Under the pieces are notes generated by a model. That model was not told where the DNA came from. It saw nothing but the letters and a program-made list of their open reading frames with translations, and ran no database searches. DNA of 21,780 nt from a virus (lineage: Duplodnaviria; Heunggongvirae; Uroviricota; Caudoviricetes). The first letter of the stretch is position 1; each line of letters starts with the position of its first letter. The position numbers and the translations under genes were made by a program. This document shows positions 3,292 through 21,432 of the stretch, in pieces. The DNA lies in the IMG/VR virus record IMGVR_UViG_3300032053_000031; one strand, given 5' to 3'.

Positions 3292-3425
3292 TTTGTTTAG
3301 TAAACCCGACAAATTCATGTAGCATGTGTGGGAAGAAATTCTGTGATTCACATGGGTATTCATTTGAATATCCAAGTTCACATTCTTCGGGTGTTTGTTA
3401 TGGGTGCTGGACTACAAAATGGTAA
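3237..3425 (+). CDS. Small Zn-finger protein (CxxC-x7-CxxC-x4-C-x2-H); paralog of 7754-7972
   Basis: CLVCLVNPTNSCSMCGKKFCDSH...CYGC. Exact start uncertain (55-nt overlap with the upstream gene). Confidence 0.6.
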   Translation: MVHNSSKKRKDRFVSSCLVCLVNPTNSCSMCGKKFCDSHGYSFEYPSSHSSGVCYGCWTTKW

Positions 3426-3856
3426 ACGAAATATATAAAGCCAATCTCATCAAGGCAGGTTGCTTATGCAATAAATGCGGATTGATCTATGGTCTTGATC
3501 ATCCGGAAGATGTAGATTGGCTCTTTGCTAATGGCAGAAAGAATTTCTGTCATGATTACTTCGCTGCAAAACATTTTTCCGCGAATAGATTTAATCTGTT
3601 CAAGCTCAAGGGAAAGTGGTACTCTGTAAAGGGTACACATATACAAATGTTTCTCTACATCGATCTTATTGAAGATGCCTTTGGGGGATACATGAATACA
3701 CCTATTCCGATAAGGTTGTCCAGACAAGTTGATATATTCCGCGTTGCAAAACAGCTAGGAGTAGAAGGTAATCTCTCATTTAATAAGACACAGCTTAAAC
3801 GGGCAAAGACTTTAAACTTCGTAGAGTCTCTTAAAGGTAGACGACGTCGATACTAA
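3419..3856 (+). CDS. Hypothetical protein with CxCxxC motif, about 145 aa
   Basis: ATG3419 overlaps the previous stop (ATGGTAA); long ORF. Confidence 0.65.
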   Translation: MVNEIYKANLIKAGCLCNKCGLIYGLDHPEDVDWLFANGRKNFCHDYFAAKHFSANRFNLFKLKGKWYSVKGTHIQMFLYIDLIEDAFGGYMNTPIPIRLSRQVDIFRVAKQLGVEGNLSFNKTQLKRAKTLNFVESLKGRRRRY

Positions 3857-3857
3857 A

Positions 3858-4166
3858 ATGGCGAAGGTATATCAAAAGAAAAATCCAGATCACAATATCT
3901 CCTGGGAAGAGGTAGAAATAGTCATAGAGACTATGCACATAGTTTATTGCAATGATGTGATTAGGATTTCTTTTGATTATATGGGACGTACAAGAGGTAT
4001 GGTAGCTGACACTGATAATTTCAAAAGAAAGGTTCGTTGGGATTATCAATACCCTTACGGGGCAAAAGCTGAAAGGATTGGATTCGTTCTACATAGAATA
4101 ATTCTATCTGAACCGATGAAATATTTGCGTCGAGATTATGTATTAAGAGTATTGCTAGGAGAATAA
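3858..4166 (+). CDS. Hypothetical protein, 102 aa
   Basis: ORF packed 1 nt from both neighbours. Confidence 0.65.
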   Translation: MAKVYQKKNPDHNISWEEVEIVIETMHIVYCNDVIRISFDYMGRTRGMVADTDNFKRKVRWDYQYPYGAKAERIGFVLHRIILSEPMKYLRRDYVLRVLLGE

Positions 4167-4167
4167 A

Positions 4168-4650
4168 ATGAATACTCTCAAATATAATAATGTTGACTAT
4201 AGGGTAGTTGTTGTGGAAGATCATCTGGACAAGATAATGCAGACGATCGGTGAGATTGTCTCATCTTATGTTAAAGGAGAAGCGGTAGTAGCCGACTTTA
4301 GTAATCTTAGATCCCGTGGGGCAAAAACATCCCATGCGGGTATCTCTTCCGGCGCAGCTTCATTCGCGGAAGCAATGGATGGTGCAATCGTTTCAGTAAT
4401 GCATGAAACGGATATCAAAAGATATCCGCCTATAGCTATACTGGCAGAAAGCCATCCCGACTTCACAGAATTTAAAAGCTCCGATCCCCAAATTGTCCTT
4501 TACGCCAGTCTATCGGATACTGGTCTAAAGATACTTGAAAAGGGAAAGAAGAACATAACGCCACGGTGGGAACTCAAAACCAAAGAGGAGGTGAGACAGA
4601 GTCTGGTGGACGTCGAGAAGCAGGCGAGTCCTTTCTTCAGGAGAGCTTAA
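4168..4650 (+). CDS. Stand-alone fragment of ribonucleotide reductase alpha subunit (specificity-site/dimer-interface region), no catalytic Cys, 160 aa
   Basis: VVEDHLDKIM...DFSNLRSRG...GISSGAASF...D...R...L...HPDFTEF follows the NrdJ/NrdA consensus V-D-S-x-e-x-I...dfS-x-lRp-x-G...G-x-sSG-x-vSF...HPDi-x-eF. The protein has no cysteine at all. GGAG RBS. Confidence 0.75.
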   Translation: MNTLKYNNVDYRVVVVEDHLDKIMQTIGEIVSSYVKGEAVVADFSNLRSRGAKTSHAGISSGAASFAEAMDGAIVSVMHETDIKRYPPIAILAESHPDFTEFKSSDPQIVLYASLSDTGLKILEKGKKNITPRWELKTKEEVRQSLVDVEKQASPFFRRA

Positions 4651-5540
4651 TGTTGAATCCGACTAGTTTTGATGAATATGTAGGACAAAAACAAGTTATA
4701 GAAAATTTAAAGGTATGTGTTAAGGGAGCAGAAACAAACAGAAAGATATTAGACCACGTACTGCTAGCAGGTCCTGCTGGCTTAGGTAAGACAAGTCTTG
4801 CTGAAATAATTGCTAAAGAAGTTAAAGCCCCAATTATAAAATTAATGGCGCCACTTCTAACCGGCACTTCTATGCTTGACTTGTTTGATGTAATGTCATA
4901 TGGAACAGTTCTATTCATAGATGAAATTCATGCCTTAGCTCCTAAAGTGGAAGAAGCTCTTTACGATCCTATAGACAATTTTAAATGGAGAGGAAAGAGT
5001 ATTCTTCCTTTTACTTTAATTGGTGCTACGACAAAAGAGGGAGGTCTAAGTAAACCTTTACGTAGTCGGTTCACTATTGTTGAAACATTTAATTTCTATA
5101 CAGTAGATGAATTGAAGCAAGTAATTAAAAGGTCGGCATTGTTATTAAATATTAATATAGATGATGACGGGGCGACCATTGTAGCACAACGGTCGAGAGG
5201 AATACCTCGGCTTGCAAATCAGAATCTTAAGAGACTGAGTTATTATAGTAATGTTATAACGCGCGAGATCGCTCAAAACACTTTGGACAAAGCGCTTGGC
5301 ATAGATGAAAACGGGTTGGATAGAGTTGACATCAATATATTAGAAACGATCCACAAATCCTTTAATAATGGTCCTGTAGGTATTGAGTCACTGTCGTCTA
5401 TCGTCGACGAAGATTTGTCGACTCTAGAATCTTTAAGAGAACCCTTCCTTGTAAGATCTGGTTTCTTACAAAGAGGTAGTAAAGGTCGTTCCTTAACATC
5501 CAAAGCTATTGAGTATCTCGAAAGGAAAAACAATGGCTAA
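4650..5540 (+). CDS. ruvB: Holliday-junction branch-migration AAA+ ATPase RuvB homolog, 296 aa
   Basis: LNPTSFDEYVGQ, Walker A GPAGLGKT, Walker B LFIDEIH, FTLIGATT, Arg finger PLRSRF, sensor-2 RGIPR, winged-helix GPVG...EPFL...GR. Start at ATG4650 (AGGAG RBS, TAATG overlap). Confidence 0.95.
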   Translation: MLNPTSFDEYVGQKQVIENLKVCVKGAETNRKILDHVLLAGPAGLGKTSLAEIIAKEVKAPIIKLMAPLLTGTSMLDLFDVMSYGTVLFIDEIHALAPKVEEALYDPIDNFKWRGKSILPFTLIGATTKEGGLSKPLRSRFTIVETFNFYTVDELKQVIKRSALLLNINIDDDGATIVAQRSRGIPRLANQNLKRLSYYSNVITREIAQNTLDKALGIDENGLDRVDINILETIHKSFNNGPVGIESLSSIVDEDLSTLESLREPFLVRSGFLQRGSKGRSLTSKAIEYLERKNNG

Positions 5541-5748
5541 AACAAAGAAGGTAGTAATTAAAGAACTTAATCTTCAATACTCTGACTATAAGAATATTGA
5601 AGGTGAACTAGTAGATGTGGAAAATGAAGTAGCTATCGTAGCTCTTCCACTAAGAAGCTTATTCGCAGAGGATGAAAGAGAGCTTCGTAAGGTGGGAGAT
5701 CGTGTACAAGTTCGTGTTCATGTATCGAGGTTGATTATTAAGGATTAG
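5533..5748 (+). CDS. Hypothetical small beta-rich protein, 71 aa
   Basis: AAGGA RBS before ATG5533; TAG stop 2 nt before the next ATG. Confidence 0.65.
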   Translation: MAKTKKVVIKELNLQYSDYKNIEGELVDVENEVAIVALPLRSLFAEDERELRKVGDRVQVRVHVSRLIIKD

Positions 5749-6776: not shown

Positions 6777-6976
6777 TGCATTACGTAATTAGATGTGTTA
6801 AATCTTTCGGGACAGCGAGACCTGGGATGTTTGTTAATATGACTGGTGGCTATACGCGCAAGATTAATAGTGCTGACGTCTTTAGTAAGGATCGGGCGGA
6901 ACAAATGATCGAAGACTACGTGGGCGACGAAAGCGGTGATTATTTTGAATTACTGCCGGTGGAGATTAACTATTGA
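6776..6976 (+). CDS. Hypothetical protein, 66 aa
   Basis: AAGGAG RBS; TAATG overlap. Confidence 0.6.
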   Translation: MHYVIRCVKSFGTARPGMFVNMTGGYTRKINSADVFSKDRAEQMIEDYVGDESGDYFELLPVEINY

Positions 6977-7428
6977 CTCTTTACGAGAAGAACCGTAGGG
7001 AATGTATTTTCGATTTGAAAAACGTTCCTACGGAAATCTTACGATTCCAAAAGTTTAATAAAAAGCTTACGATAATAGAGAGACGCGTGTCTGCTTTCTT
7101 AATCGATTGTATGGGACGTAATTTTATTTCTAAGGTTAGAACTCAGCAAATTATAAAGTTGGGAGATGACAATTACATCATGGTAGACTTCTTAATAGAG
7201 AAACCTGACCTAATAATTGAAGTTGACGGTCCTGAACACAATACTAAAGAAGATGCCTACCGCGACAAGTTAATTAAGAAGTATTTTAATTATGATGTTA
7301 TTCGTATTAAAAATAAAGATACAATAGTTAAGAACAGTGAAATGCGCAATGATCTTCTGACAATCTTTGCTAAGGTACAAAGACTTGATCCAGGGATTCT
7401 GATACAGAACTACTGGAGTGGAAGATGA
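6973..7428 (+). CDS. DUF559 / Vsr-like PD-(D/E)xK endonuclease
   Basis: VDF...LIIEVDGPEH...D..RD...VIRIKN motif; TTG start with GGAG RBS. Confidence 0.8.
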   Translation: MTLYEKNRRECIFDLKNVPTEILRFQKFNKKLTIIERRVSAFLIDCMGRNFISKVRTQQIIKLGDDNYIMVDFLIEKPDLIIEVDGPEHNTKEDAYRDKLIKKYFNYDVIRIKNKDTIVKNSEMRNDLLTIFAKVQRLDPGILIQNYWSGR

Positions 7429-7493
7429 GTATGTGTCATAAAGACTGGTCAAGGGTGTATAAGATGAATAGGAGTGTACGAGCCAGTGATTAA
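7425..7493 (+). CDS. Possible 22-aa micro-ORF (MSMCHKDWSRVYKMNRSVRASD)
   Basis: GGAG RBS, ATGA overlap with the upstream stop; fills the gap and its stop overlaps GTG7486. Confidence 0.35.
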   Translation: MSMCHKDWSRVYKMNRSVRASD

Positions 7494-7767
7494 GATAGAC
7501 AAAGAAACTTACGTAGAACCTATTGGTCAACTGAAAAAGGTGGTGGACTTCTTAGCATCTGCTGACAAAGAGACAATAAGAATATTAAGTTCCTTCTTTG
7601 CAGGCGAAGCCAAAGGGACGACAGACGCTAAAAAGTTTCAGAAGCCTCTTAAGGTTGTCAATGTATATAAGGATACCATAGAAGTAGAAGTTAATAAGAA
7701 CTACTTATGGGAAGAGAAGACTGATCTGTTTAAACCAGCAAAGGAGAACACCGATGTCGTAGAATAA
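7474..7767 (+). CDS. Hypothetical protein, 93-97 aa
   Basis: GTG start at 7474, or more likely 7486 (AGGAG 11 nt upstream). Its last codons carry the RBS, ATG and TAG of the next gene. Confidence 0.65.
   Translation: MYEPVIKIDKETYVEPIGQLKKVVDFLASADKETIRILSSFFAGEAKGTTDAKKFQKPLKVVNVYKDTIEVEVNKNYLWEEKTDLFKPAKENTDVVE
7741..7746 (+). promoter_or_regulatory. Shine-Dalgarno (AAGGAG) for amber-containing ORF 7754
   Basis: 7 nt upstream of ATG7754. Confidence 0.7.
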
Positions 7768-19911: not shown

Positions 19912-21432
19912 TTACGCGTACGGTACCGCTTCAATATAATTATCGGGTAGTGGGCCGACGTAAACAGCGTGTAGATCAGCGTCTTTGCCGAACTGATCAC
20001 CTGTCACATCAATTACTTTATCTTCAACTTCAACCCACCAGTGAGCAAGCATTCTTCCTTTAATATCACTTACATAACCAAAAATAGGAGTTGCGTCTAA
20101 ATGAAAATTGTTTTTAAGTACGTTAGCTAAATACTTTGATGTTTTTTCACAGAAGCCTCGGGGACTTACTTTATGATCTTCTACAAACTGTCCTCTAATC
20201 TGTTCTGCGATAGCCTTAATCTCATCCCAATCTATCTTATTAGCAGTCACTACTATAGTGGTATCATACATAGACGCAGCTGATTTATAAAATGGATTAA
20301 AAGGATTAACGACTGATTGTCCCTCTTGACCCTTCGGAAGAAAATAACTATTATGAACAAAAATTCCAGAAGCAAGAGCAAAATTGTGGTAACTTTCTAC
20401 TCCCACAATATCGTAGACGTCTGCGTAACCATCATTTTCTATTGAGATAACTTTGTGATGAATTGTCCACCCCTTAATGTCGCCACATTTATAAATCGCC
20501 GCAACTCTATGAGTTAATTTTTCCTTTCCTTCGCCAGGATTTCTAACACGTTCATACCCGTGATTGTCTAAGCGACGATATAGAGGCATTAGAGAACTAT
20601 TGATAGTTAAATTGTCTGCTCTACAGTAGGTTCCATCTCGAAGTAAAATTAAATGTTCTGGAGTACATCTAAACGATTCGGCGTTATCCAACACTATTTT
20701 CAATATAGGTACTGCTTTCTTAGTTAAAATAACTTCTTTTGCTAATCCACAACGTACTTCTTTTTTATCTTCATTCATGGAATAAACAAAAAAGTCTTTT
20801 TTCTTCTGTAGATATAATTCCTCTAAAGTAGGGTAGGTACCATCTAGTAGAGGTATTTTAGTGTCTCCGGTTAAACAACCAGGATATTCCCGTTTAAAAT
20901 TATTGTCGCCTATGTCAGATGGCCCCCACCAATCAACGTCATTCATTCGACGTTTATATTGAGGTGGCGCTACTGGACGACCCTTAGCTAGCGGAGCGTC
21001 TAATTCTTCTAAAGGAACATTCTCATATACGTTCTTAGCTTCTAAATCGCCAACGTTCACAGTTTTATCGCGATTTACAGATAGAATAACTCCCTCTACT
21101 TCACTTCGCCAAGTAGTGGGTTTAATCTTAACATGGTCGCCTTTAGTGAAAGCTTCTTTCGACATTGGCTCATAAAGTAGTCCAGGCTTATTAGAACTGA
21201 AGCCGTGCGACTTTTCTGAACCAGACCATTGCTTCCCTCTTGTGGAACTCTGGGGCCCTACTGTAAGATTCTTTTCTTTTAAAATGTTCTGTAGCACAGT
21301 GCAGAGTACTTCTGGATCTATATTAAAACCTAGACTCAAACCAGTAAGATCGGAGAAGGTATCAAAAGGAATTTCTCCTTCGATATTCTTTAATCGTTCT
21401 TCTATAAGCTGTCTAATATCTTGTTCTTTCAT
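19912..21432 (-). CDS. Intein-containing 506-aa protein: SH3-like barrel, intein, C-terminal transglutaminase/papain-like domain
   Basis: FTKGDHVKI...G.I..V (SH3/KOW-like); Hint motifs; GFCEKTS...HWWVE...IDVTGDQF (Cys-His-Asp). Confidence 0.85.
   Translation of the reverse strand: MKEQDIRQLIEERLKNIEGEIPFDTFSDLTGLSLGFNIDPEVLCTVLQNILKEKNLTVGPQSSTRGKQWSGSEKSHGFSSNKPGLLYEPMSKEAFTKGDHVKIKPTTWRSEVEGVILSVNRDKTVNVGDLEAKNVYENVPLEELDAPLAKGRPVAPPQYKRRMNDVDWWGPSDIGDNNFKREYPGCLTGDTKIPLLDGTYPTLEELYLQKKKDFFVYSMNEDKKEVRCGLAKEVILTKKAVPILKIVLDNAESFRCTPEHLILLRDGTYCRADNLTINSSLMPLYRRLDNHGYERVRNPGEGKEKLTHRVAAIYKCGDIKGWTIHHKVISIENDGYADVYDIVGVESYHNFALASGIFVHNSYFLPKGQEGQSVVNPFNPFYKSAASMYDTTIVVTANKIDWDEIKAIAEQIRGQFVEDHKVSPRGFCEKTSKYLANVLKNNFHLDATPIFGYVSDIKGRMLAHWWVEVEDKVIDVTGDQFGKDADLHAVYVGPLPDNYIEAVPYA
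20350..20877 (-). mobile_element. Mini-intein, 176 aa (C186-N361, +1 Ser), with a truncated HNH-endonuclease remnant
   Basis: Block A CLTGDTKI, block B FRCTPEHLIL, block F DVYDI, block G HNFALASGIFVHN|S; internal GYERV...THRV...GWTIHH. Confidence 0.9.

Follow-up and report, generated by a model that had tools for sequence, protein, structure and literature searches.

To our knowledge, the allostery of ribonucleotide reductase (RNR) has been studied for decades inside the full enzyme only. In the structures of Eriksson (1997) and Larsson (2004), it is reportedly loop 2 of the other chain that reads the effector. Such a readout is consistent with a class Ib cryo-EM preprint, in which effector and substrate were found on different monomers ("effector-bound" and "substrate-bound"). 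The specificity site (s-site) lies in the RNR dimer interface, and helices A and B form the four-helix interface of the alpha2 dimer (PMC3267527). In the E. coli enzyme, the allosteric dNTP is held at its 3'-OH by D232 and H275, whereas its phosphates are bound by the amides of L234 and R269 and by the side chains of R262 and R269, all from one chain; the effector contacts of the T. maritima enzyme include D141 and R171 (Zimanyi et al. 2016, PMC4728125). Our literature searches yielded no description of a stand-alone RNR specificity-site protein. The phage protein analyzed here, P0001, is an intact, conserved, non-catalytic derivative of the RNR region that comprises the specificity site and the dimer interface.

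The gene encoding P0001 (hereafter the mini-RNR gene, and its product and close homologues the minis) is located in a stretch of 21,780 nucleotides, referred to as the window, which belongs to a metagenomic contig of 117,657 bp from a large, uncultured phage (ENA ERZ27247916). Megablast of the window against phages gave no match. The genes around the mini-RNR gene are typical of phages: the window encodes an RlaP nucleotidyltransferase, a RuvB-like ATPase, a DUF559 endonuclease, a trypsin-like protease, a metallophosphatase, an intein-bearing protein, and a 2157-aa giant protein. As originally predicted, the mini-RNR gene is complete, with its own ribosome-binding site (Table 1), an ATG at 4168, and a TAA at 4648-4650. 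The stop codon of the gene upstream is at 4164-4166, and the RuvB-like gene starts within the stop codon of the mini-RNR gene (TAATG); the gene is thus in a tight co-directional operon. The G+C content of the mini-RNR gene was 44.5%, higher than that of the window (39.3%) and of its two neighbours (37% each), which may be due to its Gly/Ala/Ser-rich motifs or to a foreign origin.

Table 1 Features of the mini-RNR gene and its surroundings. Positions are those of the window; residue numbers refer to P0001 except for the 506-aa protein.
Feature	Position	Strand	Remarks
145-aa protein	3419..3856	+	Family unassigned; upstream neighbour conserved in loci L002 and L024
Shine-Dalgarno-like AGGAG	4157..4161	+	6 nt before the ATG of the mini-RNR gene; read from the sequence
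Mini-RNR gene (P0001, 160 aa)	4168..4650	+	N-terminal part of the RNR alpha barrel and family-specific tail
Strand A equivalent	4192..4212	+	Residues 9-15; hhalign, joint alignment, VIA-align
Helix A	4219..4272	+	Residues 18-35; invariant D18, L20, and I23 = E. coli D232, L234, and I237
FS.LR.RG motif and loop 1	4297..4353	+	Residues 44-62; invariant F44, S45, R48, G51, G58, and G62
Helix B	4354..4398	+	Residues 63-77; invariant S65 and F66
Loop 2 equivalent, degenerate	4399..4428	+	Residues 78-87; GG.R.GA consensus of RNRs lost; varies within the family
HPD..EF motif	4453..4473	+	Residues 96-102; invariant H96, D98, and E101
Family-specific C-terminal part	4561..4626	+	P132-x-W134-E-L136 and helix 139-153
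RuvB-like AAA+ ATPase, 296 aa	4650..5540	+	Pfam RuvB_N, 7.7e-38; RuvB_C, 5.2e-24
71-aa protein	5533-5748	+	Family unassigned
DUF559 (Vsr-like) endonuclease	6973-7428	+	Inside the window
97-aa protein	7474-7767	+	Family unassigned
506-aa intein-bearing protein	19912-21432	-	Mini-intein at roughly residues 186-361

The RNR homology on which the original prediction was based proved to be significant. P0001 matched the Pfam family Ribonuc_red_lgC (PF02867) with an E-value of 1.2e-5 and 24.6 bits, the gathering cut-off being 23.9, and this match was limited to residues 14-102, corresponding to positions 6-94 of the 523 positions of the profile. A phmmer search of the PDB with P0001 returned 6dqw (2.2e-5) and 1xje (3.9e-4), which are class Id and class II RNRs, respectively. 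All 12 members of the family described below matched PF02867, with a best E-value of 4.5e-11, and the family profile gave E-values of 3.4e-11 (6DQW) and 5.4e-11 (1XJE) against the PDB. AlphaFold2, given the family alignment, produced a model with a mean pLDDT of 85.5. In Foldseek searches, the best 50 matches in the PDB were all RNR, and the leading significant BFVD matches as well as all 30 AFDB-cluster matches listed were RNR alpha chains or their fragments. VIA-align superposed residues 11-123 of the model on residues 134-296 of T. maritima NrdJ (Z 13.7; rmsd, 1.4 Å over 102 residues) and residues 8-124 over residues 222-413 of E. coli NrdA, and residues 9-154 of the Atlas model aligned with full-length RNRs at a TM of 0.65-0.70.

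Residues from about 8 to 125 of P0001 thus correspond to the beginning of the RNR alpha barrel by both sequence and fold. These profile matches and superpositions indicate that P0001 is colinear with strand A, helix A, strand B, loop 1, helix B, strand C, loop 2, the HPD..EF helix, and strand D of the barrel, followed by a short extra C-terminal part. About 115 of the more than 500 residues of the RNR barrel are covered. Of the original assignment, which ran from the first strand to HPD..EF, strand A, helices A and B, loop 1, and the HPD..EF motif were confirmed, but the loop 2 equivalent turned out to be degenerate and variable.

An exhaustive HMMER search of 1.84 billion representatives returned 11 short homologues of P0001 (134-187 aa) with E-values from 2e-33 to 5e-13; full-length RNRs came after a clear gap, at about 1e-5. 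These homologues occur in related uncultured phages, were 31-49% identical (31-48% to P0001 in the alignment, whose mean identity was 44%), and represent the conserved proteins of the same length that the original prediction had proposed to look for. The alignment of the 12 minis (A1; P0001 as the reference and the 11 homologues) contained 17 invariant columns, namely D18, L20, I23, F44, S45, R48, G51, G58, G62, S65, F66, H96, and D98, which are common to minis and RNRs, together with T54, S55, P88, and E101; P132, W134, and L136 were nearly invariant. The mini family was defined by a length of 134-187 aa and by the motifs Y..V..DHL..I, DFS.LR.RG.KTS, G.S.GA.SF, P....H.D..E, and a C-terminal P.WEL, all of which describe P0001, and P0001 carries every invariant column. 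Minis scored 135-219 bits and full-length RNRs at most 54 bits. A search among longer proteins returned ordinary RNRs only and no fused, longer form of the mini.

Among cultured and deposited phages, tblastn with P0001 detected full-length RNRs only and no mini. A scan of IMG/VR gave no match with P0001 and one full-length 701-aa RNR only with A1, and a scan of JGI metagenomes with the homologue P0010 gave only RNR-like matches with 29% identity. The ESM Atlas contains dozens of mostly viral clusters, with 50-100 members each, of 180-220-aa proteins in which the RNR barrel is the only Pfam family, and the same partial fold was observed in BFVD for A0A8S5ULP8 (154 aa), A0A8S0I612 (131 aa), and the baculovirus p25 protein O55567 (222 aa). 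Short forms may therefore be more widespread, whether these proteins are fragments, products of a first exon (exon 1), or additional stand-alone families. P0034, a full-length RNR among those closest to the family profile, has an ATP-cone, an intein, and a LAGLIDADG domain, and is encoded on a cellular contig (ENA ERZ27247960; 115,620 bp) together with NiFe hydrogenase and heterodisulfide-reductase-like genes. This contig probably belongs to the same sample series, as its ERZ accession is similar, and may hint at an anaerobic habitat.

The minis were compared with RNRs residue by residue in a joint alignment of the 12 minis with the corresponding region of 20 full-length RNRs, E. coli NrdA among them. 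Tyr11 (4198-4200) is located at the position of the redox cysteine (C225 in E. coli and C134 in T. maritima) in both the hhalign comparison with E. coli NrdA and the joint alignment, and VIA-align placed residue 11 of the model over residue 134 of 1xjk. This strand-A column was Cys in all 20 RNRs, whereas it was Tyr in 10 of the 12 minis and Leu or Phe in the others. P0001 contains no Cys at all, and the minis have zero to two per protein with no conserved position. In addition, P0001 ends far short of the finger-loop NxCxE sequence (residues 437-441 in E. coli, with the thiyl-radical Cys439) and does not include the complete ten-stranded barrel. Four elements present in 17-20 of the 20 RNRs were lost in the minis: the strand-A Cys, the GGG.G strand, the G/R/G/A residues of loop 2, and the N.N.SV strand. 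The loop-2 Gln and Arg that link effector and substrate (Q294 and R298 in E. coli) were likewise not conserved in the minis. The catalytic and substrate-contact elements (the Cys, the GGG strand, the loop-2 Arg, N.N.SV, the finger loop, and the remainder of the barrel) are therefore gone.

By contrast with these losses, the residues corresponding to the effector anchor were retained. In hhalign with E. coli NrdA, D18, L20, and R48 were aligned with D232, L234, and R262, as the original prediction had it, and the joint alignment agreed; in the phmmer alignment, D141 and R171 of the T. maritima enzyme corresponded to D18 and R48. All three residues of this putative s-site anchor were invariant in the 12 minis. 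The fourth pair proposed originally, R85 with R298, did not hold, because R298, which is Arg in all 20 RNRs, aligned with K84 of P0001. That column is Lys in three of the 12 minis and the segment of residues 78-87 is variable, indicating that the specificity-site anchor has been kept and loop 2 has not. Taken together, the comparison of 12 minis with 20 RNRs supports at the family level the earlier view of a catalytically dead protein that retains the effector anchor, including its statements on Tyr11, the lack of Cys, and the lack of NxCxE.

The minis also have conserved features of their own, which are T54, S55, R50, L42/D43, A64, P88, and the P.WEL motif (P132 and W134), with T54 and S55 of loop 1 being invariant in the mini family only. 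The C-terminal helix 139-153 is often basic and ends with A-S-P-aromatic. The pLDDT of the C-terminal part was lower (61-79), and MAFFT aligned the W.L of the minis with a W/Y.L element present in class II-like RNRs.

As judged from the alignments, the effector-anchor residues are under strict selection. This conservation, combined with the published contacts, makes it reasonably probable that the mini still binds a nucleoside triphosphate, either a dNTP or ATP, at the anchor. The broader proposal, in which the mini is a nucleotide-binding module that lacks catalysis and works through pairing, the identity of the partner being left aside, is given an even chance. We infer that such pairing would involve helices A and B and would proceed without chemistry. 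Both helices are present in the P0001 model, and their pairing is a prediction only; a homodimer prediction with the A1 alignment scored 0.29 against a mark of 0.42, which is evidence neither for nor against pairing. On its outward side, helix A is polar and differs among family members, with no evident conserved docking surface, and this argues against pairing. Moreover, part of the apparent retention of residues reflects homology detection, since the same residues are the most conserved ones in the RNR segment. If it does pair, the module probably acts through the RNR dimer interface, on either an RNR alpha subunit or the nearby RuvB-like replication module.

The version that we prefer, tentatively, is that the mini is a pseudo-subunit docking on a full-length RNR alpha subunit and thereby re-setting or uncoupling the control of dNTP synthesis. 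The alpha subunit could be that of the host or one encoded elsewhere in the phage genome. The docked mini would present its bound effector to loop 2 of the alpha subunit, and the allosteric control of dNTP synthesis would be re-set or uncoupled during infection. It is possible, although doubtful, that the mini specifically replaces one alpha in the host RNR dimer, where it would hold the effector with its own anchor and loop 1, present it in trans to loop 2 of the host subunit, and capture or uncouple both the specificity and the feedback control of host dNTP synthesis. The pseudo-subunit model predicts that the anchor and the helices are kept and that the mini's own loop 2 is dispensable, in full agreement with the pattern observed. 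Counting against the pairing proposal, the conserved neighbour of the mini-RNR gene is a RuvB-like ATPase and not a nucleotide-synthesis enzyme. A dNTP "sponge", another possibility raised in the original prediction, was unsupported, and stoichiometric soaking up of dNTPs would harm phage replication. The suggested countering of nucleotide-depletion defences likewise found no support.

The mini-RNR gene sits in a replication and nucleotide module, and its surroundings were compared among related loci. The RuvB-like gene is a neighbour of the mini gene in four of six related loci. In L002 and a 90.8-kb contig (mini P0003), the order is dCMP deaminase, 145-aa protein, mini, and RuvB-like protein, so that the dCMP deaminase gene precedes the mini by two genes in L002; this gene is also found a few kilobases upstream of the P0010 mini. 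Two short Clp_N-repeat ORFs (L024, 9433-9991; L025, 110-668) are located directly upstream of the latter. The 145-aa protein gave no Pfam, PHROG, or Atlas match. In L002, L024, and L025, counterparts of the 71- and 97-aa proteins with 48-60% identity follow the RuvB-like gene; together with the 145-aa protein, the two make up a conserved block around the mini-RNR gene. Neither ruvA nor ruvC was observed near the RuvB-like gene of the window. Many unannotated "Bacteriophage sp." contigs from the human gut (MT835xxx-MT839xxx) encode homologues of the RuvB-like protein with 41-44% identity. PADLOC analysis of the mini and its two upstream neighbours gave no match to a defence family.

This gene arrangement bears on the main alternative to the pseudo-subunit, in which the mini would be an autonomous, dNTP-binding, self-dimerising sensor that switches the RuvB-like ATPase or another phage protein, via its tail, according to the dNTP supply. 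The overlap of the mini stop codon with the RuvB-like start codon in the window and the abutting of the two genes in L002 are in line with this sensor, as is the short distance at other loci: one gene, for a 152-aa protein, separates the two in L024 and L025 (61-kb contig; P0010), and the RuvB-like gene is two genes downstream in L003, which carries the most distant mini (P0012) and a RuvB-like protein with an N-terminus of 48% identity. The anchor residues are conserved, as a sensor would require, and the nearly invariant, family-specific P.WEL and tail suggest a partner not shared with RNR. On the other hand, the RuvB-like proteins are 48-64% identical across the loci, which share several further genes, and the linkage may therefore be the inherited synteny of one phage lineage. 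The linkage is also incomplete, since no RuvB-like gene was found within 6.4 kb downstream of the mini in L026 (P0009) and the next gene in L001 (P0002) encodes a small membrane protein; conversely, the gut-phage contig MT835478 has a RuvB-like gene (43% identity) but no mini in 102 kb. The sensor is accordingly regarded as possible at rather long odds, and the pseudo-subunit and the self-pairing sensor versions are about equally likely.

A structural adaptor or scaffold, in which the half-barrel was kept as a stable fold and the anchor residues serve folding or a non-nucleotide ligand, appears unlikely. Several of the conserved residues (G51, G58, G62, F44, F66, and P88) are typical fold determinants, and the change of GGG to hydrophobic residues suggests that the core of the isolated domain has been repacked, both of which would suit a scaffold. 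However, the invariance of D18 and R48 at the ribose and phosphate contacts, together with that of the polar Thr-Ser in a surface loop, is hard to explain by folding alone.

We also considered whether the mini is one piece of a genes-in-pieces RNR whose fragments would jointly rebuild an active enzyme. Phages commonly have split RNR genes, which occur in 16 of 128 RNR-bearing genomes (PMC3653736; see also PMC3045599). The present genome would be a suitable setting: in addition to the DUF559 gene, an HNH_3 endonuclease gene is located about 0.1-0.5 kb upstream of the window, and these genes and the intein indicate a genome rich in mobile endonucleases. Furthermore, about 25 kb of the 117-kb genome is outside the stretches inspected. 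Nevertheless, the strand-A Cys (20 of 20 RNRs), the GGG strand, and the loop-2 Arg are missing in all 12 minis, and the score gap between minis and RNRs is large. When 20 full-length RNRs were used as tblastn queries against the window and five related loci, only the mini genes were detected apart from an intein, and a six-frame hmmsearch with the family profile found a single mini copy per locus. No RNR N-terminal domain or other RNR segment was present in the window, in the gene lists of 10 kb on either side, or in L002, L003, L024, and L026; the Pfam-annotated flanking lists contained no RNR large or small subunit, and no RNR gene was seen near any mini family member in the loci examined. 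The original description of the gene as stand-alone, with no RNR parts to reconstitute an enzyme, thus stands for the window, about 20 kb of flanking gene lists, and the related loci.

The only other match to the RNR queries in the window (20332-20877, minus strand) was intein-to-intein and fell within the 506-aa protein. The intein of this protein begins with Cys, ends with His-Asn, and is followed by Ser at +1; Pfam Intein_splicing matched residues 193-361 (E 2e-15), and the intein resembles those of RNR genes. The exteins (about 185 and 145 aa) had neither a Pfam family nor similarity to RNR. As the RNR matches were confined to the intein and the exteins are unlike RNR, the 506-aa protein was rejected as the missing part of an RNR. 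Considering these results, a split enzyme is very improbable. A decaying, functionless remnant of a deleted RNR gene, as the shortness of the gene and a single-sequence Pfam score barely over the cut-off might suggest, is effectively refuted by the conservation of the family, since at least 12 clusters contain intact ORFs of comparable size, which are 31-49% identical and share the 17 invariant columns and the family-specific C-terminal motif, and it also conflicts with the good ribosome-binding site and operon-like packing.

An isolated, self-folding specificity-site module could provide a minimal system for studying dNTP recognition and a possible scaffold for dNTP biosensors. If the mini docks on host RNR, it would represent a new viral means of controlling the supply of host DNA precursors, and if the pseudo-subunit reading is true, it would be the first known protein regulator acting at the RNR specificity site. 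Some of the short "RNR barrel" ORFs in viromes are separate, selected families beyond gene fragments and split genes, a point of relevance wherever RNR serves as a marker gene in the annotation of viromes.

The closest known relatives of the mini are the alpha subunits of class I and class II RNRs (NrdJ, 1XJE/1XJK; F. johnsoniae class Id, 6DQW; and E. coli NrdA), to which it is homologous from strand A to strand D. The effector Asp and Arg and the FS.LR.G, G.S.G..SF, and HPD..EF motifs are common to both. Unlike these subunits, the mini has no N-terminal domain, redox cysteines, finger loop, or GGG strand, and its loop 2 is degenerate, whereas the loop-1 Thr-Ser and the C-terminal P.WEL tail are its own. 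Another allosteric nucleotide-binding element of RNR, the ATP-cone, is reused outside the enzyme as a regulator in NrdR. The cone of this bacterial protein is, however, an a-site domain fused to a zinc-ribbon DNA-binding domain and is unrelated in sequence to the s-site half-barrel.

According to the summary in PMC3267527, the monomeric class II RNR of Lactobacillus leichmannii (Sintchak et al. 2002) contains an inserted two-helix block that mimics a second subunit. As far as that summary goes, helices and loops that are not a subunit complete the specificity site there, which would be analogous to the logic of the pseudo-subunit; the block it describes is a cis insertion in an active enzyme, whereas the mini is a separate gene product that derives from the N-terminal barrel region of alpha and has no enzyme attached. 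NrdA-a and NrdA-b of phage Aeh1 (PMC3045599) and the other split phage nrd genes (PMC3653736) resemble the mini in being partial alpha chains in an endonuclease-rich genome. The Aeh1 pieces adjoin each other around mobE, jointly keep the catalytic residues, and rebuild an active enzyme, whereas in the mini such residues are replaced and no partner fragment was found. The R1 homologues of betaherpesviruses (HCMV UL45, MCMV M45, and that of HHV-6B; PMC5469499, PMC11772975) are, like the mini, inactive and kept for another role. Whereas the mini is a phage fragment of 160 aa with its nucleotide anchor retained, these homologues are full-length, come from animal viruses, and use added motifs to act on the innate-immune signalling of the host. 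The mini can be placed among the viral non-catalytic RNR derivatives, with a putative role in regulation and not in the production of DNA precursors.
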